A stretch of DNA of 32,000 nt from Fidelibacterota bacterium (GTDB lineage Bacteria; Fidelibacterota; Marinisomatia; Marinisomatales; SCKK01). A program made the translations under genes and the position numbers. The notes beneath the pieces were generated by a model. That model saw only the letters and a program-made list of their open reading frames with translations. It searched no databases and was not told the DNA's origin. This document shows positions 12,201-27,715 of the stretch, piece after piece. Position 1 is the first letter of the stretch; every line of letters starts with the position of its first letter. The stretch lies in contig SCKK01000008.1 of assembly GCA_004124475.1 (NCBI GenBank), forward strand, positions 8,075 through 40,074, in the 5' to 3' direction.

Positions 12201-12638
12201 GGGCTTCACGTAAGTCGCGGCGCCCGTTCTGCCACTGTTTAAGACCTCATCCTGTTCCGCCACCACCTCGATCATTTCCATCTCAATAGCTTCTTGGACT
12301 AGTGTAAAATTGATCTTCACTCTTTGTCCTAACCGAAGTTGGATATTTTCTTCTTTCTGGGATTGGTAACCGATAAATGAGGCTGTCACTGAGTATGGGC
12401 CTCCGACTCTCATATTCAGAATATCAAAATAACCACCTTCTCTTACGGTCGTACCGTAACTGATGCCACTGGGTTCGTGCACAGCTATTACATTGGTACC
12501 GATTAGGGGCTCTCCATTTTCATCCGTTACTAGGCCGCCAATACTAGCCGTGGTCAACCCCTGTCCATATCCTGTCTGAACACCAAACAGGATTAATACA
12601 AGAGGAATTATGATTGCATTAACTTTTTGGATTTTCAC
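9255..12638 (-). CDS. TonB-dependent outer-membrane receptor with N-terminal carboxypeptidase-regulatory-like domain
   Basis: 1127 aa with a signal peptide. It has a CarboxypepD_reg-like beta-sandwich (GLVTDENGEPLIGTNV...YSVTASFIGYQ), a plug region, a long beta-barrel and a C-terminal aromatic residue (...GLRYLF). GTG start with a GGAGGG RBS. Confidence 0.85.
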   Translation of the reverse strand: MKIQKVNAIIIPLVLILFGVQTGYGQGLTTASIGGLVTDENGEPLIGTNVIAVHEPSGISYGTTVREGGYFDILNMRVGGPYSVTASFIGYQSQKEENIQLRLGQRVKINFTLVQEAIEMEMIEVVAEQDEVLNSGRTGAATYVKPEQVALMPSIKRSVRDLTRLDPRSDGNFSFGGRNWLYNNISLDGSYFNNPFGLDDPAPGGQANAEPVSIDAIEQVQVSVAPFDVREGGFTGAGINTVTKSGTNRFHGSVYSYTRNESFVGNKVSGEEVIAKPNLSFNQTGFTISGPIIQNKLFFFFNAERERREDPASNFVADQDGNVEFGESRVSAATMDEIRKVMKDVYNYDTGEYENYFHSTDNDKIIFKIDWNVNDNHNLTLRYNRLDAFRDLPPHPFAASFLGTGRGPNENTLPFQNSGYTINNELDSYALELNSVFGSKIANRFFFSYNKFRDFRKPVSVDFPTIEIGEDGITYTTVGHEPFSIHNILDQDVFQFTNNLSYFSGRHVYTVGVNYERFNFFNSFNLFRHGVFLAPADLGILTGGFLPFDFLDGIGATTFSSVDNFYTRTNPDSAVKFYDLNALVGSGPFVGENIEVGQLAFYVQDEFQMSEQIKLTYGLRVDRPIYFTEPVDNPFSRAMILLDENGDSETVDQSKLPDASLLFSPRVGFNWDVNADRSLQVRGGTGIFTGRLPFVWIGNNISNPGPNPNLFGFYGGLAEEDIPADHVTDDGSGRLYEGRSVLKQSFFLNAMVDDFKWPQVWTTDFAVDTKLPWDILGTFEFLYGKDLNAIYLRNGDLAAPVGNLPDPDGRPIYGGGILNPFVVLDGGDTLWSGDAYSGAYIIDNTSEGYNFNFTVQLRKNFDFGLNTSLSYTFSEAKSNLKSTEIAFELWQQTPVQGNPNKPELSFSEFGHRHRIVGAGNYSHSWSDRLTTHFGLFLELAEGNRFAGAGGNRYSFTYSGDINGDGSPSNNDLIYIPNDQSEINLVDFTNSAGNVVTAAEQWTALDAFIEQDNYLKEHRGEIAERFGAVNPWYSNIDLRILQDYALSLGETSHKIQLSIDILNVANLLNSNWGVRKVASVAATSPLRFNGYDANGNPELNFTGPAETYIDDPGLFSRWQIQVGLRYLF

Positions 12639-12903
12639 TTTTTTCTTCCCTCCTTTTAAAAGGTGTTATAAAGTCGGAATTCTAATTTCCCATATTGAAA
12701 AACTAGGAGGTAGTATAGATTAAGAAATTAAATTTCCCAACAGAAAATTTGATTGTGTATAACATTTTTAAGGCGACCAAATTTCGATTAAACTAAATCA
12801 TGGATAAATAGGTTTGGACAGTGGTTAAACTTTGCACCTATTAGCTCATGTTTTTTTCTAAACGTTGCCGTAAATTTCTAACCAAATTTCAGGAGGTGAT
12901 CCA

Positions 12904-13341
12904 ATGAAAAAGGTTCTATTAAGTGTTTTAATAACGATGGGCGTGATTGGGGCGGTTACAACCCAAGATATAGATCAAAAGGAGGAATTATCCCCATATA
13001 AAAACATATCGGTAGAGGAATTAAAATCACGGTTGGATAATAAAGAGGATTTGGTCTTATTGGATGTGCGCACACCAGGGGAGTTCGATGGTCCCCTCGG
13101 TCATTTGGAAGGAGCGATACTAATTCCTGTACAAGAGCTTGAATTCCGGATTGATGAATTGGAGGACTATCAAGAGCGAGATATAATCGTATACTGCCGA
13201 AGTGGTAACCGGAGTAGAACAGCTACTGAGTTGTTATCAGCCTACGGTTTCCAAGTGACGAACCTTGAAGGAGGTATGAAGGCGTGGAATACGATGGAAA
13301 AGCTTCCTCAAGAAAAAGAAGGTGAGAAAGTTAATCCCTGA
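12904..13341 (+). CDS. secreted rhodanese-domain sulfurtransferase
   Basis: Signal peptide, LLDVRTPGEF, and the active-site loop YCRSGNRS. The RBS AGGAGGTGATCC is perfectly complementary to the anti-SD. Confidence 0.85.
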   Translation: MKKVLLSVLITMGVIGAVTTQDIDQKEELSPYKNISVEELKSRLDNKEDLVLLDVRTPGEFDGPLGHLEGAILIPVQELEFRIDELEDYQERDIIVYCRSGNRSRTATELLSAYGFQVTNLEGGMKAWNTMEKLPQEKEGEKVNP

Positions 13342-13367
13342 TTGAGAAATAATAGGGTATTCTAGTA

Positions 13368-13423
13368 TTCAAGTGTTTGGGTGTTTATGTGTTCAAGTGT
13401 TTGAGTGTTCGGGTGTTTATGTG
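13368..13423 (+). repeat. tandem repeat with 8-nt GTGTT periodicity (24-nt unit followed by a 32-nt variant)
   Basis: ttcaagtgtttgggtgtttatgtg (13368-13391) is followed by ttcaagtgtttgagtgttcgggtgtttatgtg (13392-13423). This reads as nGTGTTnn about 6.5 times, 27 nt after the rhodanese stop. Confidence 0.75.
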
Positions 13424-13493
13424 AGATGGTTGTTACTGGAATTCCCCGAACCATAAACTAAAAAGAAGTAGATTTAGGAAAGGAAAGTGTCTT

Positions 13494-13712
13494 ATGCCCA
13501 TGTATGATTACTGCTGCAAGCAATGCGGAGATAAATTTGAAGAACTTATCTTTAGTCGGGATAAAGATAAGGAGATAATTTGTCCCAACTGTTCGAGTAA
13601 AGATGCAGAGCGCCTAATGAGTGCACCCGTATCTATTGGGACATCATCCCGAAGCTTCGGGACTTCTCCGGAAAAGTGCTGTCGAGTACAACGGGGAAGC
13701 AGCTTTTTGTGA
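13494..13712 (+). CDS. FmdB-family zinc-ribbon protein
   Basis: MPMYDYCCKQCGDKFE...ICPNCSS is the classic FmdB CxxC...CxxC N-terminus. The C-terminal tail overlaps a copy of the catcccgaagcttcgggac repeat, so the true stop and tail are uncertain. Confidence 0.7.
   Translation: MPMYDYCCKQCGDKFEELIFSRDKDKEIICPNCSSKDAERLMSAPVSIGTSSRSFGTSPEKCCRVQRGSSFL
13645..13663. repeat. copy of the 19-mer catcc[t/c]gaag[t/c]ttcggga[c/t], with a perfect 14-nt palindrome core cccgaagcttcggg
   Basis: Direct match to the elements at 4091-4135 and 22945-22963. It lies inside the 3' end of the FmdB ORF. Confidence 0.7.
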
Positions 13713-13790
13713 GCATGATAACCGACATCGGTCGATGCCTCTTGTTTAAGTTGTCGCTATCTTCTTAAGAGCTTTTCTGAATCCCAACGT

Positions 13791-13940
13791 TTGGACATCC
13801 ACAGCATCTGGTTACTCATTCTCATAATAGGGGTGCTGGGACTTCCCCTCTGGACAAAGCAAATCTATCCAGCGCTGCTTTTTGGTGTCTGGCTGGGATG
13901 GTGGATTCTTGAGCATTGGTATCCCGTTATGGTAGTGTGA
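13791..13940 (+). CDS. possible 49-aa two-helix membrane peptide
   Basis: Found by hand; it is below the ORF-track length cutoff. The TTG at 13791 opens LDIHSIWLLILIIGVLGLPLWTKQIYPALLFGVWLGWWILEHWYPVMVV and the stop is at 13938-13940. It is strongly hydrophobic, but the start is weak and there is no clear RBS. Confidence 0.2.
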   Translation: MDIHSIWLLILIIGVLGLPLWTKQIYPALLFGVWLGWWILEHWYPVMVV

Positions 13941-14063
13941 TCTACAATAATGTCGCTTGTGGTGCTCTGAAATGGAGAGAAAACAGGGTTCTTTTATCTT
14001 TTATTCGATAAATTTGTTTAGATTTCCTGTTTTCTTTCAGGTTCAATCTCTTTAATTTCACTA

Positions 14064-14249
14064 GTGAAACGGAGGGAGCTTATCCGATGGCTAAGGAAAA
14101 ATGGCGCCGTTATGATTCGAGAGGGAAGAAGACATTCTTTCTGGAGAAAGGGACATCTACATACTCAGATCCCTAGGCACACAGAAATTGTTAATATGTT
14201 GGCACGAAAGATTTGCAAAGACTTGGAAATTCCATTCAAGGGGGAATAA
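14064..14249 (+). CDS. hicA: type II toxin HicA (mRNA interferase)
   Basis: 61 aa. The pattern LIRWLRKNGAVMIREGRRHSFWRKG...TQIPRHTEIVNMLARKICKDLEIP matches the HicA/YcfA pattern, including the catalytic-region His. GTG start. Confidence 0.8.
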   Translation: MKRRELIRWLRKNGAVMIREGRRHSFWRKGHLHTQIPRHTEIVNMLARKICKDLEIPFKGE

Positions 14250-14252
14250 AGT

Positions 14253-14444
14253 ATGAAATATAGAGCTGTTACAAAAAAAGAAGGTGATTGGTGGATCGGT
14301 TGGTTGGTAGATTTACCAGGGGTAAACGCCCAGGAGAGAACATACGAAGAATTGGTTCAATCACTCAAGATTGGTGCAGAGGATATGTTATCCCTTAAAG
14401 TTGATCTGCCGGAAGATGCACGGCTGGAAACCATTGAAGTATAA
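14253..14444 (+). CDS. hicB: type II antitoxin HicB family (UPF0150)
   Basis: 63 aa starting 3 nt after the hicA stop. YRAVTKKEGDWWIGWLVDLPGVNAQERTYEELVQSLKIGAED is the typical HicB N-terminal RNase-H-like fold pattern. Confidence 0.75.
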   Translation: MKYRAVTKKEGDWWIGWLVDLPGVNAQERTYEELVQSLKIGAEDMLSLKVDLPEDARLETIEV

Positions 14445-14481
14445 TCGTAACTATTCAGGCGAAGGCAAAGAGTGTTGGACT

Positions 14482-14863
14482 ATCCGCCAGCTGGCGGACA
14501 AAAATGCCCGTATGGCAACAATCCTTCGAATTATTGGTAAGGATTTATCCGAAGGATCCTTTGGAGAGCCTAAGAATAAAACACGCTTTTATCCACAGGA
14601 TGCTACGCATAAGATTTCACGCGGCAGTGCATATGAGATAATCAGTCATCCGTTAGCCAACGGACAGTGTTGCACTGTCATACATTAACGAAAAAACAAA
14701 GAGTATTTTGGTTGATTCTGTCCTAAGGATCTCCACAGGAGGCTGTTCCCTTTGGACAAGAAATATCATTCCTGCCTACCGCAGGCAGGGAGGAGCTATC
14801 CACAGGATCCATTGGAAATGATCTTATTCATTCGTTTTCCCAAAGTGTCTCCTTGTGAAGGAG
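14482..14863. repeat. field of at least 10 short hairpin (REP-like) elements, most with a conserved stem base ATCC...GGA(C/T)
   Basis: The hairpins are: atccgccagctggcggac 14482-14499; atcctt-12-aaggat 14521-14544; tccgaaggatcctttgga 14548-14565; atccacaggat 14591-14601 and 14798-14808; atccgttagccaacggac 14648-14665; gacagtgttgcactgtc 14663-14679; tgtcctaagg/cctttggaca 14719-14758 enclosing ctccacaggag; cctgcctaccgcaggcagg 14771-14789; ctccttgtgaaggag 14849-14863. Confidence 0.75.
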
Positions 14864-15012
14864 TCTTAGCCTTAGCCTTTTTCTGGCAAATAGGCTGAAC
14901 AGTTACAAATAATGTTTTGTATCGTGATCAGGAATGATTTTTTTATTAATTGAATTCAATTTTATCTCTATTTGTTACAAAATCCGTTAAAATTCGGATT
15001 TCACATTTTCTC

Positions 15013-15041
15013 TTGACATTTTCAATAGGTCACTTTACAAT
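15013..15041 (+). promoter_or_regulatory. sigma70-type promoter of the 7-gene operon
   Basis: TTGACA (15013-18), a 17-nt spacer, then TACAAT (15036-41), ending 51 nt upstream of the ATG at 15093. GAGGT RBS at 15084-15088. Confidence 0.55.
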
Positions 15042-15092
15042 TGGGTGACGTAAAGGGGCGTCAAATCGTTAATAATTAAATCCGAGGTAATT

Positions 15093-16196
15093 ATGAGGCG
15101 ATCCGCCAAATTTATAGTTTTTATAGTCTTTTTAATCTTTGCTGTTTCCTTGCAGGCAAAGAAGTACACCATAAGTGGTGTTGTTCTTAATTCAGAGGAG
15201 AAAAAAGTTCCTTCTGCTGAAGTGATCCTTATCGATTCTGATGGGAACGAGGTAGCTAAAGATGCCACAGGTAAAAGGTTAACGGGAAAAGGAAAGTTTA
15301 AATTTAAGAAAATCTCTTCCGGTAATTATACTCTTGAAGTATTTAAGGAAGACGTTGGTACATACTCAGAGGCAGTAACGGTTCCAGATGATGATGTGAA
15401 AATTACCGTCACATTATCAAAGAAAAAGAGAAGAGAATTGGTGGAAGAACCTGTTGAAAGAATCCCTGATGATGAGTATGTGACGACCGAACTGAGTTTT
15501 GAGATCAAGAAACTGACTGCGGAGATCGGCTACCTGGGAAGCCAGCTCAGAGATCTGCAGGCAAAGAGTGAAATGTGGACAAATCCCCTGTCCATCTACA
15601 GTAAAGAGATTATTCTGGACAATGGAACCACTATTTTTGGCAAGGTTGTCTACCAGGATGAGGAGATGCTTAAAGTAGAAACGCTTCTTGGCTACCTGGT
15701 GTTAAATCGGGAGCAGATTGTGCGGATTATTGATAATGTAATGACAGCGGAAGAACCTGAATACATTCCGGAACAGATTCGAGAAACCTATAGCCCACCC
15801 CCCATGCCCAAGCTTGCAAAACCTCGCTATACATCGGCAGCTCCCACAGAGCGACTACCGGACGTCAGTCGTTCGGCAAATATAGTTCTTGTTGGCAATG
15901 TATCTGAGACAAAGGATAGATCAAACAATATAACTTTCTCAGGAGAAGTGAAGAACATTGGTGGTCGTAGATCAGATTTTGTGAAAATGAATTTTGTTTT
16001 TCGAAAGAATTGGAGTGGTGAGACAAAAACTATTACAACATTTATCCGTGGCGCTTACCATACATTCGACACGGGCATTACTACCGATTCTTCTTTATTA
16101 CCGGGAGCGACAGGCACCTTTGAAATGGTTATCCCAGCCGATTTCGGCACATTTATCGGCTATTCATATACCATCGATTGGGAAGAATACGAGTGA
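15093..16196 (+). CDS. secreted CarboxypepD_reg-like domain protein with coiled coil and C-terminal beta-sandwich
   Basis: Signal peptide (FIVFIVFLIFAVSLQA). There is a carboxypeptidase-regulatory-like beta-sandwich (YTISGVVLNSEEKKVPSAEVILIDSDGNEV...GNYTLEVF), a short coiled coil, an SH3-like beta segment, a Pro-rich linker and a C-terminal beta domain. Confidence 0.6.
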   Translation: MRRSAKFIVFIVFLIFAVSLQAKKYTISGVVLNSEEKKVPSAEVILIDSDGNEVAKDATGKRLTGKGKFKFKKISSGNYTLEVFKEDVGTYSEAVTVPDDDVKITVTLSKKKRRELVEEPVERIPDDEYVTTELSFEIKKLTAEIGYLGSQLRDLQAKSEMWTNPLSIYSKEIILDNGTTIFGKVVYQDEEMLKVETLLGYLVLNREQIVRIIDNVMTAEEPEYIPEQIRETYSPPPMPKLAKPRYTSAAPTERLPDVSRSANIVLVGNVSETKDRSNNITFSGEVKNIGGRRSDFVKMNFVFRKNWSGETKTITTFIRGAYHTFDTGITTDSSLLPGATGTFEMVIPADFGTFIGYSYTIDWEEYE

Positions 16197-17224
16197 AGAT
16201 TGGAACCGTAAAACAGAAACCGGTTTTTAGTTTACTCATACCGATTTTGTTTTTTTCAAACCTGCCAGCTCAGGAGTCTTTCACCGAAGACGCCTTTTTT
16301 CTTGACCTGGGTATCGTCATCGAGCTGGGCACAGGAAAAGAAGAAATCAATCGCCTCATAAAAGCGCCTTCAGAGCAGGTGAAGTTCTTTCTCGATAAAG
16401 AGCCCAGTGGCTCTGTGTTTATGGCTTCAACAAAGGAGCTTCAACTGACACTTGAACGGATCACAAAAAGAATGGAAAGCCTTGAGAGTTCTATATATTC
16501 TTTAGAGGGATTCTTTGAGAAAGAAGTGAACACACTAAAAAGCGAGAACAGCCACCTTAGAGAAATGATATCTGATTTACTGGCGCAAGAACCAGTGGTA
16601 CCACCGGCATTGGAGAAGTTGGTTGTCAGAATAGAAGAGGTGGTTTCAGATGTGGAACAGTTAAAAAATATATCCTCTGGTGAAACTAATATGTTGTTTG
16701 TCACTGGAATTGCACCTATTGAAAAACCGAAAGTTATTGAAACAGAAATGAGTAGTGAATACGTGAATAGACAATCATCTGGTATTAAGGATAAAACAGA
16801 AGATCTGGTAGAATCAGACCAGAACACTCGGGAAGAACAGAAAAGTTTTAGTAAGTTAACTTATATGGCGGCTGTATTCGCTTATCAGCGGGATGATTAT
16901 CAAAGTGCTTTAAGACAGTTTCGAAATTTATCGCTGATGGATACGGAAGACCTCACTGCAGGAAATGTACTTTACTGGATGGCGGATTGTTATTTTCAGC
17001 TTGGAGAATATGATGAAGCTCTGAGTACACTGGAGAGAATAAAGGAATTTTCAAAGTCCGACAGGCTTGATGATGCTTTGGTTTTGAGCGGCCTGTCATA
17101 TCGCCGTATGGGTAAAGAATCGCGAGCGGTCTCTGCATTTAGTGATGTGGTGAATAACTATCCGGAAAGTGAATATTACAGATTGGCTCAGATGGAGCTA
17201 AAAAAATCAGAGAAGCGACCATGA
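16193..17224 (+). CDS. CpoB/YbgF-like periplasmic protein (signal peptide, coiled coil, C-terminal TPR)
   Basis: The GTG at 16193 overlaps the upstream stop (GTGA). The coiled coil is LQLTLERITKRMESLESSIYSLEG...LKSENSHLREMI. The C-terminal TPR block closely follows the Tol-Pal YbgF pattern (YMAAVFAYQRDDYQSALRQF...NVLYWMADCYFQLGEYDEAL...DDALVLSGLSY...VVNNYPESEYYRLAQ). Confidence 0.65.
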   Translation: MKIGTVKQKPVFSLLIPILFFSNLPAQESFTEDAFFLDLGIVIELGTGKEEINRLIKAPSEQVKFFLDKEPSGSVFMASTKELQLTLERITKRMESLESSIYSLEGFFEKEVNTLKSENSHLREMISDLLAQEPVVPPALEKLVVRIEEVVSDVEQLKNISSGETNMLFVTGIAPIEKPKVIETEMSSEYVNRQSSGIKDKTEDLVESDQNTREEQKSFSKLTYMAAVFAYQRDDYQSALRQFRNLSLMDTEDLTAGNVLYWMADCYFQLGEYDEALSTLERIKEFSKSDRLDDALVLSGLSYRRMGKESRAVSAFSDVVNNYPESEYYRLAQMELKKSEKRP

Positions 17225-18588
17225 TTAATAAATACGGAAAAATTGTTCTTCTGGGATTGGCATTCGGGATGATGTTCCCACTTTTGGGGGTAACACGTGT
17301 GGCTAATATGTATCCAGGTTCAATGATAAAAATTCCAACCAGCAGCGCAGTCAGATCTCCATACCTTTTCAGCACCGGTTTTGCCACGGAAATTCATAGG
17401 TTTTCAGATCCTTTTAACACAGCTAGAGGCTTTTATTTTTCCATGGATTTGACCAACCGGTTTACTATGGGTTTTTCATCTGTACAGAGCGCTGATACCA
17501 CCGCTTTAGAAAATATTCTGACATCAACTCTCAGACCACCCATAGAGTTTGGTTTTCATATACAATATCGGGCATATGTTTATAATGACATTGCTTTCTC
17601 TGTGGGTATTCATGATATTGTTTTTAAAGATGACCCTACAAACGGTTTAAACTTAAATCCCAGGGATTTTTCTACTTTTCTGTCTATTGGCAGTGAGAAA
17701 ATTTTAGGGGAATATGGCCTTAGCACTTATATGGGTTTTGGCACAGGTGGTTTCAGTGCTCCGGATACTTCCTCTGTAGTAGTTGATACGGTTACAACAG
17801 GATCGAATTCAGGGATATTTGCTGGGTTTCTTCTTAAAACGCCATTCCTGCCCAAATGGGGCGGACTTGACTTTGTGGGTGAATTCGATGGTTCAGGCAT
17901 CAATGTGGGACTCCGCATCCCCCTTACCTCGGATTATCGCTTGACAGTAGGATTCACCCACTTAGAAAATTTACCTGCCTTTTCGGATGAACCTTATGGA
18001 CCTACTCACCCGGGGTTGATCATTGGTTTGGATATGTCGGTTCCGAGAGGGCCCAAAAGGGTTCCGGGTATACCCACTCCTGGTATTGTAAGGGGACCAT
18101 TACCCGCTCCTGAAATGGCGATGATGGATTCAGCCATGTTAGCAGCGGATTTCGCTGTGGCTGCACTCCGAGATTCAATCAGGATTAACCAGCTTGAGAT
18201 GAGAAATTTGATGACACAGGTAGCCAGTGTGCAGCATAAAGCATTTGTACTTGAAAATTCCGTGAAAGCCCTGAGTCTCGAAAAAGCCGTCGCACAGAGA
18301 AATATGAATCGTGCTATGCGCCATCTGTCAAGATCGCTCCGTTATTTTTATTCCGGAGACTATCGTGAGGCTCTGCAGGAGGTGGAGACTTCACTCGATC
18401 TGAATCCCAACCTGGCGCTTGCCTATGCCCGGAGAGGATCCATCTATTACAAGCTTGGAGATGTACAGCGGGCAACCATTAATTGGAATCTGGCATTGCA
18501 GATGGATCCGGAGTATGATGATGTGAGAAATATTTTAAAGGCGTTACATGAAAATCGCTTAAAAACAACCAGTTTTCGCAGGGAGTAA
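17221..18588 (+). CDS. secreted beta-rich domain / Pro-rich linker / coiled coil / TPR protein
   Basis: ATGA overlap with the upstream gene and a signal peptide. The N-terminal ~270 aa have alternating beta-strand-like segments (possible barrel). They are followed by PRGPKRVPGIPTPGIVRGPLPAPE, a coiled coil and C-terminal TPRs (FYSGDYREALQEVETSLDLNPNLALAYARRGSIYYKLGDVQRA...). Confidence 0.6.
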   Translation: MINKYGKIVLLGLAFGMMFPLLGVTRVANMYPGSMIKIPTSSAVRSPYLFSTGFATEIHRFSDPFNTARGFYFSMDLTNRFTMGFSSVQSADTTALENILTSTLRPPIEFGFHIQYRAYVYNDIAFSVGIHDIVFKDDPTNGLNLNPRDFSTFLSIGSEKILGEYGLSTYMGFGTGGFSAPDTSSVVVDTVTTGSNSGIFAGFLLKTPFLPKWGGLDFVGEFDGSGINVGLRIPLTSDYRLTVGFTHLENLPAFSDEPYGPTHPGLIIGLDMSVPRGPKRVPGIPTPGIVRGPLPAPEMAMMDSAMLAADFAVAALRDSIRINQLEMRNLMTQVASVQHKAFVLENSVKALSLEKAVAQRNMNRAMRHLSRSLRYFYSGDYREALQEVETSLDLNPNLALAYARRGSIYYKLGDVQRATINWNLALQMDPEYDDVRNILKALHENRLKTTSFRRE

Positions 18589-18597
18589 AGGAGAGAT

Positions 18598-19371
18598 ATG
18601 GATATTGCAACAATAATAGGAATTATCGTTGGTATTGGAGCCATTAGTGGTGGGATTATACTACTTACTCCGGATTTTGCCATGTTTGGCTCGATATCGA
18701 GTTTTGCTATTGTATTTGGAGGAATGATAGCCTCTGTCTCGGTTGCTTTCCCTTTAGCGGAAGTTCTAAAATTGGGTTCGGCAATGGGAGCTGTTTTTAA
18801 AGGCGGGGATCTGAAATTAGGTACTGTTGTAGATGATGTTGTAGAAGTTTCGGGTGTAGCTCGTAAAGGGGCTGTTGAGTTGGAGAAGTCAGTGAGTGAA
18901 ATTAAAAACCCATTTTTTAGGGATGGTGTACAAATGGTGGTTGATGGATACGGTGCAGATGAGATTATCGATATTCTCGAAACACGAATCTCATATCGTG
19001 AGGTAAGAGAACGATCTCAAGCGGGACTTTTCCAAACCATGGGTGTGATGGCACCAGCTTGGGGGATGATCGGGACACTCATTGGTTTGGTCGTCATGCT
19101 GTCAGGTTTTGGCGGTGGCGGCGGAGCGGATGCCCTCGGTTCCGGTATGTCTGCAGCCCTCATCACCACATTTTACGGAGCGGTCATGGCTAACCTGTTC
19201 TTTCTTCCTATGGCAGCCAAACTAAATTCAAGGCTTACACACACCAGTACATTACAGGCGATGATAGTGGAGGGAGCCCGCTTGATTCACCAGACGAAAC
19301 ATCCCCTGATTGTTCGTGAGAAATTAAACTCTTTTATTCCACCCAAGGAGTGGAAGAGAGAAGGGGAATAA
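18598..19371 (+). CDS. motA: flagellar-type stator protein MotA/PomA
   Basis: 257 aa with a 4-TM layout and a large cytoplasmic loop between TM2 and TM3. The conserved TM3/TM4 prolines are in MAPAWGMIGTLIGLV and ALITTFYGAVMANLFFLPMAAKL. AAGGAGA RBS. Confidence 0.85.
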   Translation: MDIATIIGIIVGIGAISGGIILLTPDFAMFGSISSFAIVFGGMIASVSVAFPLAEVLKLGSAMGAVFKGGDLKLGTVVDDVVEVSGVARKGAVELEKSVSEIKNPFFRDGVQMVVDGYGADEIIDILETRISYREVRERSQAGLFQTMGVMAPAWGMIGTLIGLVVMLSGFGGGGGADALGSGMSAALITTFYGAVMANLFFLPMAAKLNSRLTHTSTLQAMIVEGARLIHQTKHPLIVREKLNSFIPPKEWKREGE

Positions 19372-19374
19372 TCT

Positions 19375-20148
19375 TTGGCTAAAAAGCCGACACCTCCTCC
19401 CCCGGAAGTAGGTCTTCCAGGATGGTTCGCTACCTTTGCGGATATGATGACACTTCTTTTTGCGTTCTTTGTCCTGTTAGCTGCAATTTCTACTGTAGAT
19501 CCGGTGAAGTTACAACAGATGGCAGATTCCATGGGAAAATCGGTGGGAAAAAAATTGGAGATTGATAGCCAAGCTATGTCGCTCGGGGATATATACGAAG
19601 CATTGGAGGAAATGGTAGAGGAGATGGAACCAAGCCCCGAAACAGGAGAAAAACCCGTGGAAGTGAAGACGAGCACAAAAGGGGTAACTCTTGAGGTGTC
19701 ATCAGACATTAGTTTTGGTTCGGGGTCAGCGGAGCTGAAAGCGGCCATTCTTCCCACTCTAAAAAAATTAGTACCTTTTATTAACCGGTCTTATAATATG
19801 GTGGCAATCGAAGGACATACGGACAATGAACCGCTACCCGAAATATTTCATGATAAATTTCCCAGTAATTGGGAGTTATCCGGGGCAAGGGCTGCTGCTG
19901 TAGTCCGGGAATTTATAAGTTTGGGAGTAGATCCCACGAGGTTACAGTCGGTGGGTTATGCTGAATTTATTCCACGGGATGCGCCTACTGATCGCCTTAT
20001 CGACGAATCAATTATTCAAGAATTTAATTCCACACCTGGGAAAAAGGCGAAAAATAGGCGTGTGGGAATTACATTCCTTGCTACCAGTATAGACATACAA
20101 AAGAAAGAAGACTGGGATAAATCAAAAGAAGAATCCGGGAAAGAATAA
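19375..20148 (+). CDS. motB: stator protein MotB/PomB (OmpA-like peptidoglycan-binding C-terminus)
   Basis: The N-terminal motif PGWFATFADMMTLLFAFFVLL carries the channel Asp. The C-terminal OmpA-like block is VAIEGHTDNEPLP...FPSNWELSGARAAAVVREF...NRRVGITF. TTG start 3 nt after motA. Confidence 0.85.
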   Translation: MAKKPTPPPPEVGLPGWFATFADMMTLLFAFFVLLAAISTVDPVKLQQMADSMGKSVGKKLEIDSQAMSLGDIYEALEEMVEEMEPSPETGEKPVEVKTSTKGVTLEVSSDISFGSGSAELKAAILPTLKKLVPFINRSYNMVAIEGHTDNEPLPEIFHDKFPSNWELSGARAAAVVREFISLGVDPTRLQSVGYAEFIPRDAPTDRLIDESIIQEFNSTPGKKAKNRRVGITFLATSIDIQKKEDWDKSKEESGKE

Positions 20149-20170
20149 TTTTTTACAAGAAGGAGACATT

Positions 20171-21730
20171 ATGAGAAAACATCTTATACTAACTATCGCT
20201 CTGGCTGTAGGATCTTTATTCACGCTTACTCAGTCACAGGAAACATCCTATTTAGCTCAGAAGCTGATGTTGGAAAATGATTTGCGCAGCCGTATCAATG
20301 GAGCATTGGAAAAAATCTTGGATGATCATCGATATGTTTTAGATGTATCCGTAGAATTATCTCTTACCCCCACGGTTAAGGAAGAAGTCACATTCAGACC
20401 AATCACAAAAAAAGGTGCTGAACGGGGTAGGAAAAAACTATACGGGGAAGAAACAGGGCCTTTATTGGAAGCAGGCAGGGATCGCAAATCTCGCCTGACT
20501 GGAATTCCCATTCCGGGGTTTGATTTTCAGATTGAAGAAGAACCTGAAGTACCTACGGAAAGACTTTCAGAAATAAAAGAAGAGGAAGGGATGGAACAAG
20601 CTTTCCCCTCGCAAGCTCAAATAATGACCCAATCTTATACTGATATCACAGCTTCAAGACCCATCATTGAAAAATTGGAGATCAGTTGTATCCTGCCTGA
20701 GGGTTCTGCCCCTGAACTTATTGAGAACGTCCGTCAAATTATTATGGTGGCTTCACACTTTAATCGGAGCAGAGGTGATATGTTAAGCATCATGACCGCT
20801 TCATTCAGGGAGAGAAGAGACCAGCGAACGGCTGAGTCCATCATCTTAAGAAGTATTGCCGAAAAAATTGATAAGCTTGAGAGAGAAAAAGAAACCGGTG
20901 TGAGTGAAGAAAAGGCAGAAGTAGACTGGCAGGAGGAATTTCTTCAGTGGAAGGAAGAAGAAACCCGCCGTCGGGAGGATGATCGTGCAATGTTTCTTGC
21001 AGAATTGAAGAAATTGGAAGATGAGCGAGTACTCCGCAATTTGGAACGTGAAAAGAAAACCATTCTAAAAAGGGATTCTCTCAAGACTGAAGAGATTAAG
21101 GTATTAAAAGAATTACTTGCATCAGCTCAGCTATCAAAGACGGAAACCGAGGCAGTCCAAGAAGAAGTGGCAGTAAAGGAAAAGGAGATCGCCGATCTGG
21201 ATACTCTCAGGAAAAAGATGGAAGAGTTTGAAGCAGCGATGCTTCAGGACACTGAAAGTTGGGTAAGAGAATCTCGAGGAGGAATAGGTAATCTACCCAT
21301 TTATCTCATGAGCGCAATTTCGTTATTAGCTGTGATGGCGTTGGCAGCGGTGATTATTTTCAACGGGCGGAAGCCGAAGTATGTTATGCCCCCACCGTGG
21401 GCTATGCCTCGTCCTCCCAGGAAAAAAAAAGTATCTAAGAAGCCTATAGAGGAGCAGGATGAGGCAAAACCCGGACCGTTTGCGCCTGCACCAGTAGCAA
21501 CAGCCCCCCTTGGTCAGGAACCATCAGCTGTTGCTGGAGATCCTGCGGTATTGCAGTCTGAAATCAAGTCTGTCCGCCAGTCTATCGTATCTATGAGTGT
21601 TGGGCAACCACAGACTGCCACATCAATTGTGAAAGAGTGGCTTCAGGAAGAAGCTCCTCCTCCGCCTGAAGAACCGGCTGCAGCCCCAGAGGCGCCGGAA
21701 GAAGAGGAAGGCAAAAAGAAGAAAAAGTAG
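20171..21730 (+). CDS. divergent FliF/YscJ-like membrane ring protein with coiled-coil insertion
   Basis: N-terminal hydrophobic segment. There is a ring-building-motif-like block LENDLRSRINGALEKILDDHRYVLDVSVELSL and a second block KLEISCILPEG...LIENVRQIIMVASHFNRSRGDMLSIMTASF, which follows the FliF pattern ...RLSVAV...AVGfd..RGD.l.V....F. These are followed by ~160 aa of E/K/R coiled coil and a second TM (LPIYLMSAISLLAVMALAAVIIF). The C-terminal helix TATSIVKEWLQEE resembles the FliG-binding tail of FliF. Confidence 0.5.
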   Translation: MRKHLILTIALAVGSLFTLTQSQETSYLAQKLMLENDLRSRINGALEKILDDHRYVLDVSVELSLTPTVKEEVTFRPITKKGAERGRKKLYGEETGPLLEAGRDRKSRLTGIPIPGFDFQIEEEPEVPTERLSEIKEEEGMEQAFPSQAQIMTQSYTDITASRPIIEKLEISCILPEGSAPELIENVRQIIMVASHFNRSRGDMLSIMTASFRERRDQRTAESIILRSIAEKIDKLEREKETGVSEEKAEVDWQEEFLQWKEEETRRREDDRAMFLAELKKLEDERVLRNLEREKKTILKRDSLKTEEIKVLKELLASAQLSKTETEAVQEEVAVKEKEIADLDTLRKKMEEFEAAMLQDTESWVRESRGGIGNLPIYLMSAISLLAVMALAAVIIFNGRKPKYVMPPPWAMPRPPRKKKVSKKPIEEQDEAKPGPFAPAPVATAPLGQEPSAVAGDPAVLQSEIKSVRQSIVSMSVGQPQTATSIVKEWLQEEAPPPPEEPAAAPEAPEEEEGKKKKK

Positions 21731-21739
21731 AGGCGTAGA

Positions 21740-22669
21740 ATGATTACAGATTATAATAGATTGTCAGGGTTGGATAAAGTAGCAATTCTTTTTTCTGTGT
21801 TAGGAGAAAGTTTAGCCATAACCCTGATTAAAGGTTTGCCAGAAACAGATGTTCGGAAGATTAGAGCACGAATTCGCGAAATGGGTACTGTTGTTTTTTC
21901 TGTTAAAAAGAAAGTAGTAGAAGAGTTCTATCTGGCATTAATTTCCAAGAAATTCCAGGATGACGGCAAAGGAGACACAAAACGTCCATTTGCTTTTCTG
22001 GATGAAATGGCAGATGAACAAATTATTGCTCTTTTAGAAATAGAGGAGCCCAGGATTGTTGCCATGACTTTAGCGCAGGTTTCTCCGGAGAGTCAAATGA
22101 AGGTAATAAACAAATTGGAACCTGATAAAAAAGGACGAGTCCTTATGGAAATGGGACGTCTTGACGATGTTTCATTGGAAGCTGTGGTGAATATCGCCTC
22201 AGAACTCGAAGAGAAGTCTCATTTTCTCCCCAGAGCTGTGGATTTTTCCAGGGGTGGTGGAAAGAGTATAGCCAAGATCTTAGGACAGATGAGTTCAGAT
22301 GAGGAAGAGAAGTATCTGGAAGCTATCAGTCGTGAATCACCCGAGCTGGCGGAAGAGGTGAAAAAATATCATTTAACCTTCGATAATATTTTGACATTCC
22401 CTGGGAATATTGTAAGGGATCTGATGAATTCTGTGGATTTGGATACAATTGCCATGGCTTTAAAGGGACAGTCGGAAGAAACGGTGAACGCGATACTCGA
22501 GAATCTCCCAAAAAAGAAACAGGCAATGTTTGAACCTATCGAGAGGGCAATTGCCAAGCGGGATGTGGATAAAGCCAAGAAGACCATTGTTGATGCAGCC
22601 CGCCAAATGGAAAAGGAGGGTCGTTTCAATCTTGAGGATATTTTAGGTGGCGGTGAAATGGTGGAATGA
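21740..22669 (+). CDS. fliG: FliG-like rotor protein (N, M and C domains recognisable)
   Basis: The N domain is LSGLDKVAILFSVLGESLAITLIKGLPETDVRKIRARI. The M domain is EQIIALLEIEEPRIVAMTLAQVSPESQMKVINKLEPDKKGRVLMEMGRL. The C domain is FDNILTFPGNIVRDLMNSVDLDTIAMALKGQSEETVNAILENLPKKKQAMFEPIE...RDVDKAKKTIVDAARQMEKEGR. Confidence 0.75.
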   Translation: MITDYNRLSGLDKVAILFSVLGESLAITLIKGLPETDVRKIRARIREMGTVVFSVKKKVVEEFYLALISKKFQDDGKGDTKRPFAFLDEMADEQIIALLEIEEPRIVAMTLAQVSPESQMKVINKLEPDKKGRVLMEMGRLDDVSLEAVVNIASELEEKSHFLPRAVDFSRGGGKSIAKILGQMSSDEEEKYLEAISRESPELAEEVKKYHLTFDNILTFPGNIVRDLMNSVDLDTIAMALKGQSEETVNAILENLPKKKQAMFEPIERAIAKRDVDKAKKTIVDAARQMEKEGRFNLEDILGGGEMVE

Positions 22670-22700
22670 TTTCCCAACCTTTGAATGAGTTTAATCGAAG

Positions 22701-22736
22701 AAGCCTTCCCTGAGCAATATTGGGAAGGCTTTTTCT
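22701..22736 (+). terminator. rho-independent terminator of the operon
   Basis: aagccttccc (22701-10) pairs with gggaaggctt (22722-31) across an 11-nt loop and is followed by a T-run. It lies 32 nt after the fliG-like stop. Confidence 0.65.
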
Positions 22737-22782
22737 CCTGTAAATAGCATTGAGCATGGAACCAAGCACCCCGACACTTCGT

Positions 22783-22847
22783 GTACCTGCCCGTCCGGCA
22801 GGCCGGGCGGGATTTCCCTGCCTGGTCGGCAGACAGGGAGCAGGGAA
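22783..22847. repeat. GC-rich multi-hairpin module, partner of 4167-4244
   Basis: gtacctgcccgtccggcagg (stem cctgcc/ggcagg) is followed by ccgggcggg-attt-ccctgcctgg, a 9-bp stem with two G-T pairs, and then gggagcaggg. It shares its termini with the inverted copy near 4200. Confidence 0.6.
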
Positions 22848-22944
22848 AATGCAGCAAGTATTAAGTAACAATTTTCAAGTTTCCCTGAACGGTCGTTCCG
22901 AAGGAGTGTCTACGACAAAAGCTTCCTATTGGGCTGCCAAGTTT

Positions 22945-22963
22945 CATCCTGAAGTTTCGGGAC
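22945..22963. repeat. copy of the 19-mer catcctgaagtttcgggac
   Basis: 18 of 19 positions identical to 4091-4109 (last base c vs t) and 2 mismatches to 13645-13663. Confidence 0.75.
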
Positions 22964-23008
22964 TACAGGGCAGGTTGCTTCGTATATTTTAACCTGAATG
23001 GAGAAAAA

Positions 23009-23800
23009 ATGAAAAATACATTTGTTAGCTCACAGAGTTATGTCCATCCGAAGGATCCTGCGGACAGGACCTTTCGGATGGACAGGATCTTTATGATCTA
23101 TTTGGGTCTAATGTCAGCAAGTACGTTATTTGCTGGAAAGTGGGAATATTCCATTAATGGAGCATTAAAAACCCAAACCGGTAATACTGATGTGTCATCT
23201 TTTTCTGTTGCTCTGTCGAGTCAACATGAGGGTGATTTTACTATAGGTTCATGGACTCTAAAAGATGCGGAAATTAAGTTTTCCATTAGTCACAGTAGGG
23301 GGAAATTAAAAGATGTGTTGTATGAGAATGATGGAAACGCCAGTTTCCTATTGAATTACCATGCCAATCAAAAGTTTTCCCCATTTTTCCATTTCTATTT
23401 TGAGTTTGATTCAACAGCATCTCTTGAAAACAGGACACAGATGGGCTTTGGGGCTAAATATAGTATTACAAAACCGTTTTCAATCAGTATCCTAGGTCTG
23501 TGGGAATTGGAAGATTATGTGGGTGAAGATCAAGCAAGTCAATTACGGTGGTCAATCCGACCAAAATATAAAAAGAGTTTTAATTCGGGTGTATCAGTAA
23601 GCTACGTTGCTTTCTATAAACCGTTGCAACGTGATTTTAATAATTATCTTTTGGAACACTATGCGACAGTATCTTTAGCCACAAAAATATCCTGGTTAAG
23701 TGTTAATGTAACTTTGGAGGATAAATTCAACTCTCGACCACCTGCCGATACAAAGAAAAAAGACGTGGATGTAACCGTTGGCATAACCTTAACATTTTAA
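23009..23800 (+). CDS. DUF481-family outer-membrane beta-barrel protein
   Basis: The pattern after the signal peptide, KWEYSINGALKTQTGNTDVSS...(alternating strands)...GFGAKYSI...VTVGITLTF, matches DUF481/YdiY-type small OMPs. The ATG at 23009 has a GGAGA RBS, but codons 11-26 are a nested palindromic repeat. The start may instead be the ATG at 23078 (MDRIFMIYLGLMSASTLFA). Confidence 0.6.
   Translation: MKNTFVSSQSYVHPKDPADRTFRMDRIFMIYLGLMSASTLFAGKWEYSINGALKTQTGNTDVSSFSVALSSQHEGDFTIGSWTLKDAEIKFSISHSRGKLKDVLYENDGNASFLLNYHANQKFSPFFHFYFEFDSTASLENRTQMGFGAKYSITKPFSISILGLWELEDYVGEDQASQLRWSIRPKYKKSFNSGVSVSYVAFYKPLQRDFNNYLLEHYATVSLATKISWLSVNVTLEDKFNSRPPADTKKKDVDVTVGITLTF
23041..23084. repeat. 44-nt nested palindrome (compound hairpin element)
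   Basis: The outer arms are tgtccatccgaagg and cctttcggatggaca, and the inner hairpin is atcctg-cgga-caggac. It shares the 14-mer atccgaaggatcct with 14547-14560 and its architecture with 14719-14758. Confidence 0.7.
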
Positions 23801-25541: not shown

Positions 25542-25604
25542 CAAAATAAGGAAATAAAAAGAATTGATGGATTGTTGAAAATCCAAAAAGTTCGGGAGTT
25601 TGAT

Positions 25605-26393
25605 ATGTTTGAAAATTATGTTGAAGAACAAAAGGAACTTTTACCTTTTGTTAAAAAACAGTATAACATGTTCCCAAAGTTACAATTGCCCAGTTTCTAT
25701 GAGAGTGGAAATAATTTCATTGAAAGTAGGATAAGAAACAATACAACAAAATGGTGGAGAGAAATTGAGAATTGCGTAGAAGAAATATGTTATGCTTACT
25801 GTTTCTTTAAAGAATATATTTGCCTGAAAGACACATATCATGAAGATGTAGAATCTGATTCATTTAACCGGGCTTATGAAATTCTTCTCTTCGAAATACC
25901 ATTTTGGACAAACAACCTCTTAAGTAGGTTATATTCTTTCAGGGAAAAAATAGCGCACTTAATTTTCTTTTTGAATGACGGTGTGTTGAGGATTGGGAGA
26001 AAAAATAAGAAATATAGGATGCGTGATATTTCATTTAGCAACATTCATCAATCAATTAGAGATTTTTCGCAAAAGGACAAATTGCCAGTTTGGCTTTCTT
26101 ATAATGATAAGGAAGTTATGTTGAAGGCACTTAAAGAATTTGGGTCCGAAGAAGTTAAAAATCTATTGGATATCCGCCACGCATTCATTCATAATTCTTC
26201 ACCGGCTATTGACACAACTGGGACAGGACTATTGCTATTTGGCGGAGAAATGAATGGGGATGGTAATTTCTCAGTAGAAATCGAACGGCCTCCTAATTAT
26301 GATTACCAAACGATAGAAAGTGAATTCTTGAAAATTTGGGAAATATTTAAAGAGAACACGATAAAGATTTCAAGGTTAGAATTTTTTCAGTAA
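25605..26393 (+). CDS. hypothetical protein, HEPN-like (Cthe_2314/Abi-type) candidate
   Basis: The ATG at 25605 has a GGGAG RBS 6 nt upstream and is preferred over the track's TTG at 25572. It is predicted all-helical. There is an Rx4H motif in LLDIRHAFIHNSS preceded by the helix LYSFREKIAHLIFFLND, as in HEPN families. The coding sequence is AT-rich. Confidence 0.4.
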   Translation: MFENYVEEQKELLPFVKKQYNMFPKLQLPSFYESGNNFIESRIRNNTTKWWREIENCVEEICYAYCFFKEYICLKDTYHEDVESDSFNRAYEILLFEIPFWTNNLLSRLYSFREKIAHLIFFLNDGVLRIGRKNKKYRMRDISFSNIHQSIRDFSQKDKLPVWLSYNDKEVMLKALKEFGSEEVKNLLDIRHAFIHNSSPAIDTTGTGLLLFGGEMNGDGNFSVEIERPPNYDYQTIESEFLKIWEIFKENTIKISRLEFFQ

Positions 26394-26420
26394 AATATCG
26401 TAAGCTATCTTGTTTCGACT

Positions 26421-26545
26421 AAAACACCCCACGAACGTGAAGTCCTACAGCGGCAGATTGACCGGTTGGTGCCTGTCCGCCTACTGGCGGATATGAGTTG
26501 TATGAGTTGACGAAGGAGGAAGTTGGGATTGTGAAGAGGGGAAGG
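26421..26545 (+). pseudogene. relic B of the methyltransferase 3' end (21-nt deletion plus 20-nt hairpin insertion)
   Basis: The shared blocks are roughly 90% identical to relic A by eye. It lacks gccacggacaagcagatagat, a deletion between the imperfect direct repeats cagattgat and cagatagat. It carries cctgtccgcctactggcgga inserted between gtg and tat, which shifts the frame. Confidence 0.6.
26472..26491. repeat. 20-nt hairpin element inserted into relic B
   Basis: The stem is tccgcc/ggcgga with loop tact. Its reverse complement tccgccagtaggcggaca matches tccgccagctggcggaca at 14483-14500 at 16 of 18 positions. It is absent from the homologous position in relics A and C. Confidence 0.75.
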
Positions 26546-26550
26546 AAGAT

Positions 26551-27432: not shown

Positions 27433-27517
27433 GTGTTAGGTTTATTCGATGATACTCTCTGTCCGCATGTATCCATCCTAATGAATTTTCGGTTACAAGA
27501 ATCACTTTTCCCCTCAA

Positions 27518-27640
27518 ATGCTGCACGATGAGACGGCTCTCCAGCGGCAGATAGATGCTACGGACAGGCAGATTGATCAATTGGTGTATAAGTTGTATGA
27601 ACTGACGGTGGGGGAGATCCGTCTAATCGAAGAAACGACG
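27518..27640 (+). pseudogene. relic C of the methyltransferase 3' end
   Basis: It translates to MLHDETALQRQIDATDRQIDQLVYKLYELTVGEIRLIEETT. The normal stop is lost, so the frame runs on through hairpin-element sequence to 27736. It is more diverged at the DNA level than relics A and B. Confidence 0.55.
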
Positions 27641-27715
27641 GACAATCCACGCCTACACAAGTTACGGCGGACAGGTAGAGATTGTGGAGGCAGGAACAAA
27701 AAGAGGACTGGGAAG

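Follow-up and report, generated by a model that had tools for sequence, protein, structure and literature searches.

The window analysed here is a 32,000-nucleotide (nt) stretch of contig SCKK01000008.1 from a Fidelibacterota bacterium (assembly GCA_004124475.1). On its plus strand, at 15093-22669, lie seven open reading frames (ORFs), designated g1 to g7, that combine a MotA/MotB-type stator with FliF-like and FliG-like rotor proteins and three scaffold proteins. We propose that this operon probably encodes an envelope-spanning, non-flagellar rotor-stator machine built from flagellar-motor parts. The genes and the signals that bracket them are as follows.

15013..15041, + strand: sigma-70-like promoter candidate, TTGACA-17-TACAAT, with 11/12 matches, 52 nt upstream of the g1 ATG
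15093..16196, + strand: g1, secreted protein of 367 amino acids (aa) with a signal peptide, a CarboxypepD_reg/PEGA-like beta-sandwich and a coiled coil
16193..17224, + strand: g2, CpoB/YbgF-like periplasmic protein in which a signal peptide and a coiled coil are followed by a variable linker and, at the C-terminus, TPR repeats
17221..18588, + strand: g3, predicted outer-membrane beta-barrel with TPR (AlphaFold model, Foldseek, TPR profile)
18598..19371, + strand: g4, flagellar-type MotA/PomA stator A subunit, 257 aa (MotA_ExbB, 95.8 bits)
19375..20148, + strand: g5, stator B subunit of the MotB/PomB type, in which the channel Asp (FADMMTLL) and a plug are combined with an OmpA-like domain that binds peptidoglycan
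20171..21730, + strand: g6, FliF-like ring protein, 519 aa (AlphaFold and Foldseek, PF08345)
21740..22669, + strand: g7, three-domain FliG-like protein, 309 aa (Pfam FliG_N/M/C)
22697..22735, + strand: intrinsic terminator with a 14-bp GC-rich stem, an 11-nt loop and a U-rich 3' side

All seven ORFs described in an earlier note on this DNA were found at the same coordinates, and recomputation returned the same junctions from g1 to g7 (-4, -4, +9, +3, +22 and +9 nt). At the g1/g2 overlap, the g2 GTG is at 16193 and the g1 TGA at 16194-16196; a TTG at 16178 is the other candidate start of g2. The near-consensus promoter claimed by that note was recovered at 15013-15041 as the best-scoring site across 14500-23500, as a match to a consensus that may not be that of the host, and a GAGG motif lies 8 nt upstream of the g1 ATG. 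The hairpin with a T-run that it placed after the last gene was also recovered: folding of 22685-22745 gave a dG of -23.8 kcal/mol (z -5.09), with 0/200 shuffles as good. With its 11-nt loop, this hairpin escaped a generic terminator scan. Together, the ORF spacing, the promoter candidate and the terminator point to one transcription unit, which is the natural reading of the sequence. No Rfam families were found in the window.

The stator pair is encoded by g4 and g5. PDB sequence matches to g4 were flagellar MotA or PomA in 10/10 cases, over the full length and with E values of 9e-41 to 2.5e-19; C. sporogenes MotA came first (E 9e-41), and the matches included neither ExbB nor TolQ structures. 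The NCBIfam equivalog cut-offs were not reached (184 bits vs 394). Among 70 orthologues, conservation reaches at least 95% at R89 and E96, which correspond to E. coli R90 and E98, and at the prolines of transmembrane (TM) helices TM3 and TM4 that the earlier note gave for g4 when calling it MotA. The previous identification of g5 as MotB, with a channel Asp and an OmpA-like domain, likewise agrees with its matches to MotB_plug (63.4 bits) and OmpA (45.9 bits). The best PDB sequence matches of g5 were MotB and PomB, its TM and plug segment, FADMMTLL included, is invariant in 74 orthologues, and its ratio of non-synonymous to synonymous substitution rates (dN/dS) is 0.035.

Zorya defence was considered for these two genes and rejected. 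Zorya (ZorAB) is, like the pair described here, a MotAB-family motor outside the flagellum; however, g4 has neither a ZorA match nor the long ZorA tail, g5 gives only generic ZorB (MotB-type) matches, no ZorC/D/E-type genes are present here, and the block shows phylum-wide syntenic conservation, unlike defence islands.

The g7 protein contains FliG_N, FliG_M and FliG_C domains scoring 60.3, 50.4 and 81.5 bits, each over its Pfam cut-off, and its PDB sequence matches were FliG in 12/12 cases, one of them an engineered FliF-FliG fusion chain, in keeping with its description in the earlier note as a three-domain FliG-like protein. Scores fell below equivalog level (110.7 vs 226.7 bits for TIGR00207; 40.9 vs 550 for NF004260). 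The FliM-binding EHPQR site reads EEPRI, an E-x-P-x-x pattern conserved across 75 orthologues at its first Glu (E102) alone, and the MFxF hinge reads HLTF. Conserved residues in the torque-helix region are K259, K260, E265, P266 (invariant), E268, K273 and R274; K259/K260 align with E. coli R281, the canonical torque charges being R281, D288 and D289. Judged from sequence, a torque contact between MotA and the C-domain of the FliG-like protein is plausible.

The g6 protein begins with an N-terminal TM helix or signal peptide (hydrophobic at about residues 5-22), followed by a single RBM3-like domain at 26-210. The domain has RBM-type topology (alpha-beta-beta...beta-beta-alpha-beta) and is split by a disordered acidic insert at 84-151, in which nothing is conserved but an invariant PIPGF(D/E)F. 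Next come a periplasmic coiled-coil hairpin (221-370), TM2 (375-399) and a cytoplasmic tail, the tail carrying a helix at 458-494 with the motif '...SMSVGQP.TA..IVKEWL.EE' and a poly-Lys end. This tail is the best conserved part of the protein ('...EDPxVLQSEI...RQSVVSMSVGQPETAT.IVKEWLEEE'), with S463, E464, S474, P480 and W490 invariant in a 40-sequence alignment, and we take it to resemble the FliG-binding C-terminus of FliF. At its extremity (21640-21730, residues about 490-519), nearly all 40 orthologues have a Pro/Glu-rich stretch and then 5-10 lysines (GKKKKK).

An AlphaFold model of g6 was built from the 40-sequence alignment (pLDDT 68.6) and has one RBM-like domain only between TM1 and the coiled coil. 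Its top 16 Foldseek matches in the PDB were all the RBM3/S-ring of FliF MS rings (E 1.5e-7 to 1.1e-5, Foldseek probability 1.00), with a TM-score on the target of up to 0.60. Against YscJ_FliF_C (PF08345), g6 scored 21.9 bits, slightly below the cut-off of 23.8, and most orthologues pass this model; g6 gave no match to YscJ_FliF (PF01514, RBM1/RBM2) at E<=0.1, no NCBIfam match, and nothing useful among PDB sequences. The earlier description as a 'FliF/YscJ-like two-TM ring protein' is narrowed by these results: the FliF part stands as RBM3, with 16 Foldseek matches, but the YscJ-like part does not, since RBM1/RBM2 are missing. FliF and FliG homology of the last two genes, a point on which that note had made its idea depend, is supported by the Pfam FliG domains and by the PDB and Foldseek matches. 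The module as a whole belongs to the MotA, MotB, FliG and FliF-RBM3 families at domain level, below equivalog thresholds.

Upstream of the motor genes lie the three scaffold genes. The g1 protein scores 33.2 bits against CarboxypepD_reg (PF13620), just over the cut-off of 32.3, as expected for the CarboxypepD_reg-like secreted protein named in the earlier note. Two further regions are conserved, a small domain (about 165-215) and, to a high degree, a C-terminal beta domain (about 262-367), and PDB sequences gave a marginal beta-sandwich match only. Its orthologues are 50-98% identical (mostly 50-67%) and hold the same position in 65 of the 83 related loci described below, namely those whose contigs reach it; its dN/dS is 0.14. 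An N-terminal CarboxypepD_reg domain, as in g1, is also present in a 1127-aa outer-membrane protein encoded at 9255-12638 on the - strand, together with an OMP_b-brl_4 barrel.

The g2 protein matches TPR_6 (56 bits) and related TPR repeats. Its best named models are below cut-off, namely TIGR02795 tol_pal_ybgF (52.2 vs 90.1) and BamD (46 vs 81), and it scores 32.9 bits against PRK10803 (cut-off 383) and has a weak FlcA C-terminal match, also below the family cut-off. The 'Tol-Pal-type', YbgF-like character previously ascribed to g2 is thus upheld by the coiled-coil/TPR architecture but not by the YbgF model, and the 'Tol-Pal-type' label denotes architectural resemblance only.

By sequence profiles g3 shows TPR alone. 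In its AlphaFold model (pLDDT 69, moderate), 12-14 strands at about residues 48-275 form a barrel. After it come a Pro-rich linker, a helix of 75 residues and, at the C-terminus, a TPR pair that bears the family hallmark 'RGSIYYKLG...W..AL..DP'. The Foldseek matches of the barrel were FapF (E 2.7e-6), a designed 12-strand barrel, NanC and OmpG, with a Foldseek probability of 1.00, and the C-terminus matched consensus TPR proteins. On this prediction, g3 sits in the outer membrane as a barrel and extends a coiled coil and TPR into the periplasm. Of the earlier 'beta-rich/TPR' description, the TPR part holds and the beta-rich part is corrected to an outer-membrane beta-barrel, a prediction that strengthens the suggestion in the same note that the motor is wired to outer-membrane scaffolds.

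The block is conserved across the phylum. The g6 family alignment was scanned against one genome per species (185,579 species), yielding 105 relatives, from which 80 loci were kept; every named record among these 80 belongs to the Marinimicrobia phylum. Three further contigs brought the synteny set to 83 loci from about 80 GTDB species, which were compared with the seven proteins by tblastn. The seven genes occur in the same order and on the same strand in the 83 loci wherever the contig extends far enough, which settles in the affirmative the matter of conservation in related genomes raised by the earlier note. Named homologues of g3, g6 and g7 were all from Marinimicrobia, Neomarinimicrobiota, Fidelibacterota or 'FCB group' metagenome-assembled genomes (MAGs); one record is labelled Caldithrix abyssi. 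The g6 protein of the window is 100% identical to one from a 'Candidatus Marinimicrobia bacterium' MAG, and its host belongs to the Marinimicrobia (SAR406/Fidelibacterota). The flanking genes vary by lineage, and the most divergent clades (36-40% FliG identity) retain the arrangement of the block. Typical identities to the window proteins over most of the phylum are listed here; the few outliers are short alignments on truncated contigs and one near-identical locus (L004).

MotA (g4): 65-84%
MotB (g5): 50-77%
FliG-like (g7): 53-68%
g3: 52-67%
g1: 50-67%
g6: 34-57%
g2, the least conserved of the seven: 32-57%

Relative to the closest relative, dN/dS was 0.04-0.36 for all seven genes; relative to a distant one, synonymous sites were saturated and the non-synonymous divergence (pN) was 0.12-0.29. 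From the collinearity and the low dN/dS, the block is a functional, phylum-wide module under purifying selection. Leftover flagellar genes are known in other non-motile bacteria (PMC12199754), but a functionless, decaying remnant of a lost flagellum is scarcely credible here: the seven reading frames are intact in about 80 species at the dN/dS values just given, MotA keeps the high identity listed above, and the operon signals are preserved. These conservation data effectively refute it.

A variant of the block occurs in an abundant divergent Marinimicrobia/'FCB group' clade (L091, 2392-10930), where it has eight genes, including a second CpoB/BamD-like TPR gene, and its FliF-like protein is 628 aa long with no Pfam match on record.

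The distribution of the rotor proteins beyond this phylum was assessed by phmmer with g7 against 1.84 billion cluster representatives, in which only 26 proteins matched at E<=1e-30. The g7-like clusters of ~305-312 aa that were looked up and had an organism name were Marinimicrobia or 'FCB group', except for one with a member on a 1.2-kb contig labelled Woesearchaeota. The next class of matches consisted of 28 proteins of 580-724 aa, which scored about 90-106 bits in alignments that span most or all of g7. FliG N/M/C makes up their C-terminal halves. The N-terminal halves start with a signal peptide or TM helix and continue with an RBM start, the motif 'LPG(L/I/M)P', a second RBM half ending '...RGD...', a TM helix and the segment '(I/V)(V/I)NL(A/G).G(Q/R)P(D/E)L', and alignment of these halves with the g6 family by hhalign gave a probability of 99.0% (E 4.9e-18) over the RBM3-like domain. 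On this evidence the 28 proteins are natural FliF-like/FliG-like fusions, and they lend Rosetta-stone support to contact between g6 and g7. The MAGs that carry them are labelled Pseudomonadota, Saccharospirillaceae and Elusimicrobia, so the module extends beyond one phylum. Six fusion loci were examined.

L084, 1-6683: fusion locus on a contig that ends just upstream of the fusion
L085, 7625-11844: fusion locus on a Joint Genome Institute (JGI) metagenome contig
L086, 8243-13443: fusion locus in a Saccharospirillaceae/Pseudomonadales MAG
L087, 10001-15570: fusion locus
L088, 8168-13478: fusion locus on a metagenome contig
L089, 9197-12535: fusion locus

The fusion gene adjoins MotA and MotB in 4/6 of these loci, and in 6/6 a hidden Markov model (HMM) of the g3 family matches the C-terminus of a neighbouring TPR gene ('GSIY(Y/F)..G...A...W..A..LDP', E 1e-8 to 3e-16). 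HMMs of the g1 and g2 families found no homologues in the six loci at E<=1e-3; shared with these remote loci by HMM are only the g3 TPR end, MotA, MotB and FliG, with the FliF-like part in one locus. In L086 and L088 a protein of 352 or 377 aa comes first, with a weak FlgO-like match (below cut-off) and an outer-membrane-barrel-type C-terminus; a TPR lipoprotein, the fusion, MotA and MotB follow in that order. The Elusimicrobia MAG has the fusion, a 369-aa protein, a TPR protein, MotA, and MotB with TPR, and in L084 and L089 the fusion is accompanied by a PEGA/TPR lipoprotein and a small outer-membrane barrel. Most fusions retain the canonical R/K...D-E torque-helix pattern, and their MotA proteins retain the R/K...E/D pair. 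The recurring core is a FliF(RBM3)-FliG rotor with an outer-membrane-tethered TPR protein (through a lipid anchor or barrel) and, in most loci, MotAB; the wider module often adds an outer-membrane barrel and a PEGA/CarboxypepD_reg-type sandwich.

In L085 the order is an adhesin-like protein, a small lipoprotein, an OprF-like barrel with TPR, the fusion, MotA, MotB and a cadherin-domain protein. The adhesin-like protein (1974-7370, 1798 aa) has DUF285, cadherin, Big_1 and Invasin_D3 domains, and the cadherin-domain protein (11841-14129) is longer than 763 aa. These adhesin-like neighbours could be surface cargo or the load of the motor.

A scan of the window's other 17 ORFs turned up no flagellar genes, in agreement with what the earlier note had claimed for the rest of the stretch, and none occurred among genes called in the 10 kb past each window end on near-identical contigs (~52 kb in total). 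In the flagellar motor, RBM1 and RBM2 of FliF house and surround the export gate, so g6, having neither, offers no socket for such a gate. Gene counts across the phylum are available from a per-genome HMM table for fliG, fliM and fliNY in 962 oxygen-deficient-zone MAGs (PMC10359470, Dataset 3). In the 10 Marinisomatota rows retrieved (genomes 53-85% complete, MAG sizes 0.6-2.0 Mb), fliM and fliNY were 0 in 10/10, fliG was 1 in 6/10, and all were called non-motile, with no comment by the authors on the orphan fliG (PMC10359470). A count of fliG=1 without fliM or fliNY is the signature of the operon described here. The phylum's only cultured member, Fidelibacter multiformis, is described as non-motile (PMC11652737).

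With no RBM1/RBM2 in g6, a degenerate EHPQR site in g7, no fliM/fliN in 10/10 table rows and a non-motile cultured relative, a non-flagellar role is a strong but indirect conclusion, and a flagellar regulon elsewhere in the genome is unlikely. That the block is simply an ordinary, divergent flagellar motor operon whose remaining regulon lies elsewhere is very improbable. Such a reading would fit the JGI annotation, in which g7 homologues are named 'flagellar motor switch protein FliG', and many of the available genomes are incomplete MAGs. Besides the features just listed, it is opposed by the partners of the motor genes, which are an outer-membrane barrel and TPR proteins and not fliH/I/J, and by the homologous fused module in a Saccharospirillaceae MAG; Saccharospirillaceae normally have their own polar flagellum. 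It follows from the table rows that fliG alone should not serve to score SAR406 genomes as motile.

We propose the following mechanism for an envelope machine of this kind. The FliF-like (g6) subunits would form an RBM3 ring in the inner membrane, and the FliG-like (g7) subunits would bind the g6 cytoplasmic tails one to one, beneath the ring. Peptidoglycan-anchored MotA5B2 units would push the FliG-like C-domains through the conserved charged residues, and this push would turn, or at least load, the FliF-like ring. In the periplasm, the TPR domains of g3 and g2 would meet the RBM3 ring with its PIPGF(D/E)F loop and its coiled-coil hairpins, roughly 10 nm long; g3 would hang from the outer membrane on its long helix. 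Proton- or sodium-motive energy could in this way be converted to mechanical work, as movement or tension at outer-membrane components. The earlier note had arrived at a stator-plus-rotor module set on envelope scaffolds and serving something other than a flagellum; that proposal is supported, with rotation and function being the parts that we infer.

Several observations weigh against this mechanism. The torque helix of g7 is 3 residues shorter than that of canonical FliG, and the R89/E96 charge pair of g4 is spaced 7 residues apart, vs 8 in canonical MotA. The AlphaFold models of g3 and g6 are of moderate confidence only (pLDDT 68-69), and the contact of TPR domains with PIPGF(D/E)F is purely conjectural. 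Among the fusion loci, MotAB was not seen in L089 (within 10 kb) or in L084, up to the end of its contig just upstream of the fusion. Lastly, the evidence for the absence of flhA, flhB, fliPQR, fliI and rod, hook and filament genes is indirect.

Our best guess for the output is the movement or maintenance of outer-membrane or surface components, in a Tol-Pal-like, gliding-like or type IX secretion system (T9SS)-like manner, and neither filament propulsion nor type III export. Envelope maintenance is favoured by the universal retention of the module in small planktonic genomes together with its CpoB-like component; movement of surface proteins is favoured by the adhesin-flanked L085 locus together with the gliding and T9SS precedents in the FCB group. 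A housekeeping output might also come from a free-standing rotary envelope engine, in which a FliF(RBM3)/FliG ring is spun by MotAB and coupled through TPR domains to outer-membrane barrels, being either the survivor of a pre-flagellar motor or a new class of exapted motor; we regard this version as tentative.

A static or semi-static energised tether is a rather unlikely alternative. The FliF/FliG ring would then serve as a docking platform on which MotAB unplugs and binds peptidoglycan, much as in a Tol-Pal/CpoB-like system, giving a link between inner membrane, wall and outer membrane that depends on the proton motive force and serves envelope integrity or division with no continuous rotation of a large ring. 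Speaking for a tether are the CpoB architecture of g2 (coiled coil plus YbgF-like TPR), the OmpA-like wall-binding domain of MotB, the outer-membrane barrel of g3, the retention throughout small planktonic genomes (0.6-2.0 Mb MAGs), which suggests housekeeping, and the lack of any cargo or adhesin gene linked to the block in Marinimicrobia. The stator, however, is of flagellar type with a full cytoplasmic torque domain and not of TolQ/ExbB type, and unless torque is transferred it is difficult to account for the conservation of three FliG domains and of charged residues on both sides of the interface. Moreover, g2 stays below the cut-off of the YbgF model, and a profile search of the seven proteins found no TolA, TolB or Pal domains in the operon.

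As to origin, the most likely ancestor of the rotor-stator machine is a flagellar motor from which the export apparatus, the axial parts and FliM/FliN were lost. FCB-group relatives of Marinimicrobia include flagellated lineages, which sits poorly with the opposite course, descent from an ancestral rotor-stator that predates FliF RBM1/RBM2 and type III export docking. That course is improbable on further grounds: MotA is matched best, over its full length, by ordinary flagellar stators (Clostridium, Paenibacillus and Vibrio), canonical FliG is the best match of the FliG-like protein, and the patchy distribution fits reduction plus transfer equally well. Some features do suit an early lineage, including the minimal set of an RBM3-only FliF, FliG and MotAB with no FliM/FliN, its presence in several distant phyla, some with a simpler single-polypeptide FliF-FliG, and the report of rotor proteins without filaments in 11% of non-motile species, whose role was left open (PMC12199754).

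Further features were observed around the operon. GC-rich palindromes of the form CCTGCC-N-GGCAGG, with 0 expected by chance, flank it at 14771-14789 and 22786-22802 and may be a REP-like element. The second lies inside a GC-rich 100-nt stretch 3' of the terminator that contains spurious ORFs on both strands; the GC-rich segment 22755-22860 folds no better than shuffles (z -1.55). In the 1.7-kb gap upstream of the operon, small ORFs at 13496-14445 were identified by eye only, with a CxxC...CxxC zinc-ribbon, FmdB-like ORF at about 13496 and a HicA/HicB-like toxin-antitoxin pair at about 14066-14445. Downstream, a low-GC stretch (0.376) at 25572-28351 with three ORFs having no or weak Pfam matches (HEPN_Cthe2314, 24 bits; SduA_N, 22 bits) may be a small defence or mobile island. 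To the left of the window, a near-identical contig (L092, 1-6587) encodes a 4902-aa surface protein with DUF5122, fn3, FG-GAP, NosD/beta-helix and UnbV_ASPIC domains and a Wzi-like protein, both just upstream of the glycosyltransferase and radical-SAM genes of the window.

Among known systems, the flagellar torque core (MotA5B2, FliG ring and FliF MS ring) is closest, and the four core proteins of the module are homologous to it. They share the stator with its channel Asp, plug, wall-binding domain and R90/E98-equivalent pair, the three FliG domains, and, in g6, the RBM3 fold, two membrane segments and an FliG-binding-like C-terminal helix. Unlike FliF, g6 is without RBM1/RBM2 and a beta-collar, in whose place the disordered PIPGF(D/E)F loop sits, and it gains a 150-residue periplasmic coiled coil and a poly-Lys tail; g7 has degenerate EHPQR and MFxF motifs and a shorter torque helix. 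Genes for FliM/FliN, export, rod, hook and filament are not in view, and barrel and TPR partners are found here. FliG and FliF are generally treated as flagellum-specific. Flagellar-type ('FIT') stators are likewise treated as specialised for flagellar motility in a 2025 study of MotAB evolution (PMC12505986).

Some flagellar motors carry accessory rings, such as MotX/MotY and FlgO/FlgP/FlgT in Vibrio, PflA/PflB in Campylobacter and the FlcA collar of spirochaetes. The module resembles these in having TPR-rich or beta-rich periplasmic or outer-membrane proteins beside a stator, with weak FlcA (g2) and FlgO (neighbours of the fused modules) matches. All of these matches are below cut-offs, however, and the accessory scaffolds ring a rod-bearing basal body; we know of none in an organism without a flagellum. 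Tol-Pal/CpoB shares with the module an ion-driven 5:2 inner-membrane motor, an OmpA-like peptidoglycan-binding domain, a coiled-coil/TPR periplasmic protein and the likely role of linking inner-membrane energy to the outer membrane. It differs in having a TolQR-type and not a MotAB-type motor, in its TolA, TolB and Pal, which are missing here, and in having no FliG/FliF ring. Myxococcus Agl-Glt gliding and Bacteroidetes GldLM/T9SS are non-flagellar MotAB-family motors coupled to TPR proteins and outer-membrane barrels, and they perform mechanical work at the cell surface, a likeness to which the adhesin-flanked fused module of L085 adds. They are driven, in contrast, by TolQR/ExbBD-like or GldLM motors that work through TonB-like or GldM shafts, and to our knowledge neither system uses a FliG/FliF rotor.

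Retained flagellar remnants are familiar from Buchnera and Chlamydia. A 2025 ISME J study found rotor genes in 11% of non-motile species and asked what purpose such a half-motor might serve, raising a possible alternative function (PMC12199754). Full-text literature searches found no description of the operon or of natural FliF-FliG fusions, and the earlier note, which knew of no described system with such a composition, agrees with that result. The operon thus offers a concrete, testable object, with a fixed seven-gene set, defined partners, a range spanning an abundant marine phylum, and fusions that mark the rotor contact. Its bearers, the Marinimicrobia/SAR406, are widespread and apparently flagellum-less ocean bacteria and among the most abundant dark-ocean phyla. 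The module bears on how the flagellar motor arose or can be dismantled, and, should the ring turn, it would be the first FliG/FliF rotor at work outside a flagellum and a new route of ion-motive energy to the outer membrane. With the reported 'half motors' it shares rotor proteins without filament genes; those reports consist of counts or of retained export parts and describe no conserved operon, partner set or architecture, whereas here it is the torque core that is kept, not the export core.

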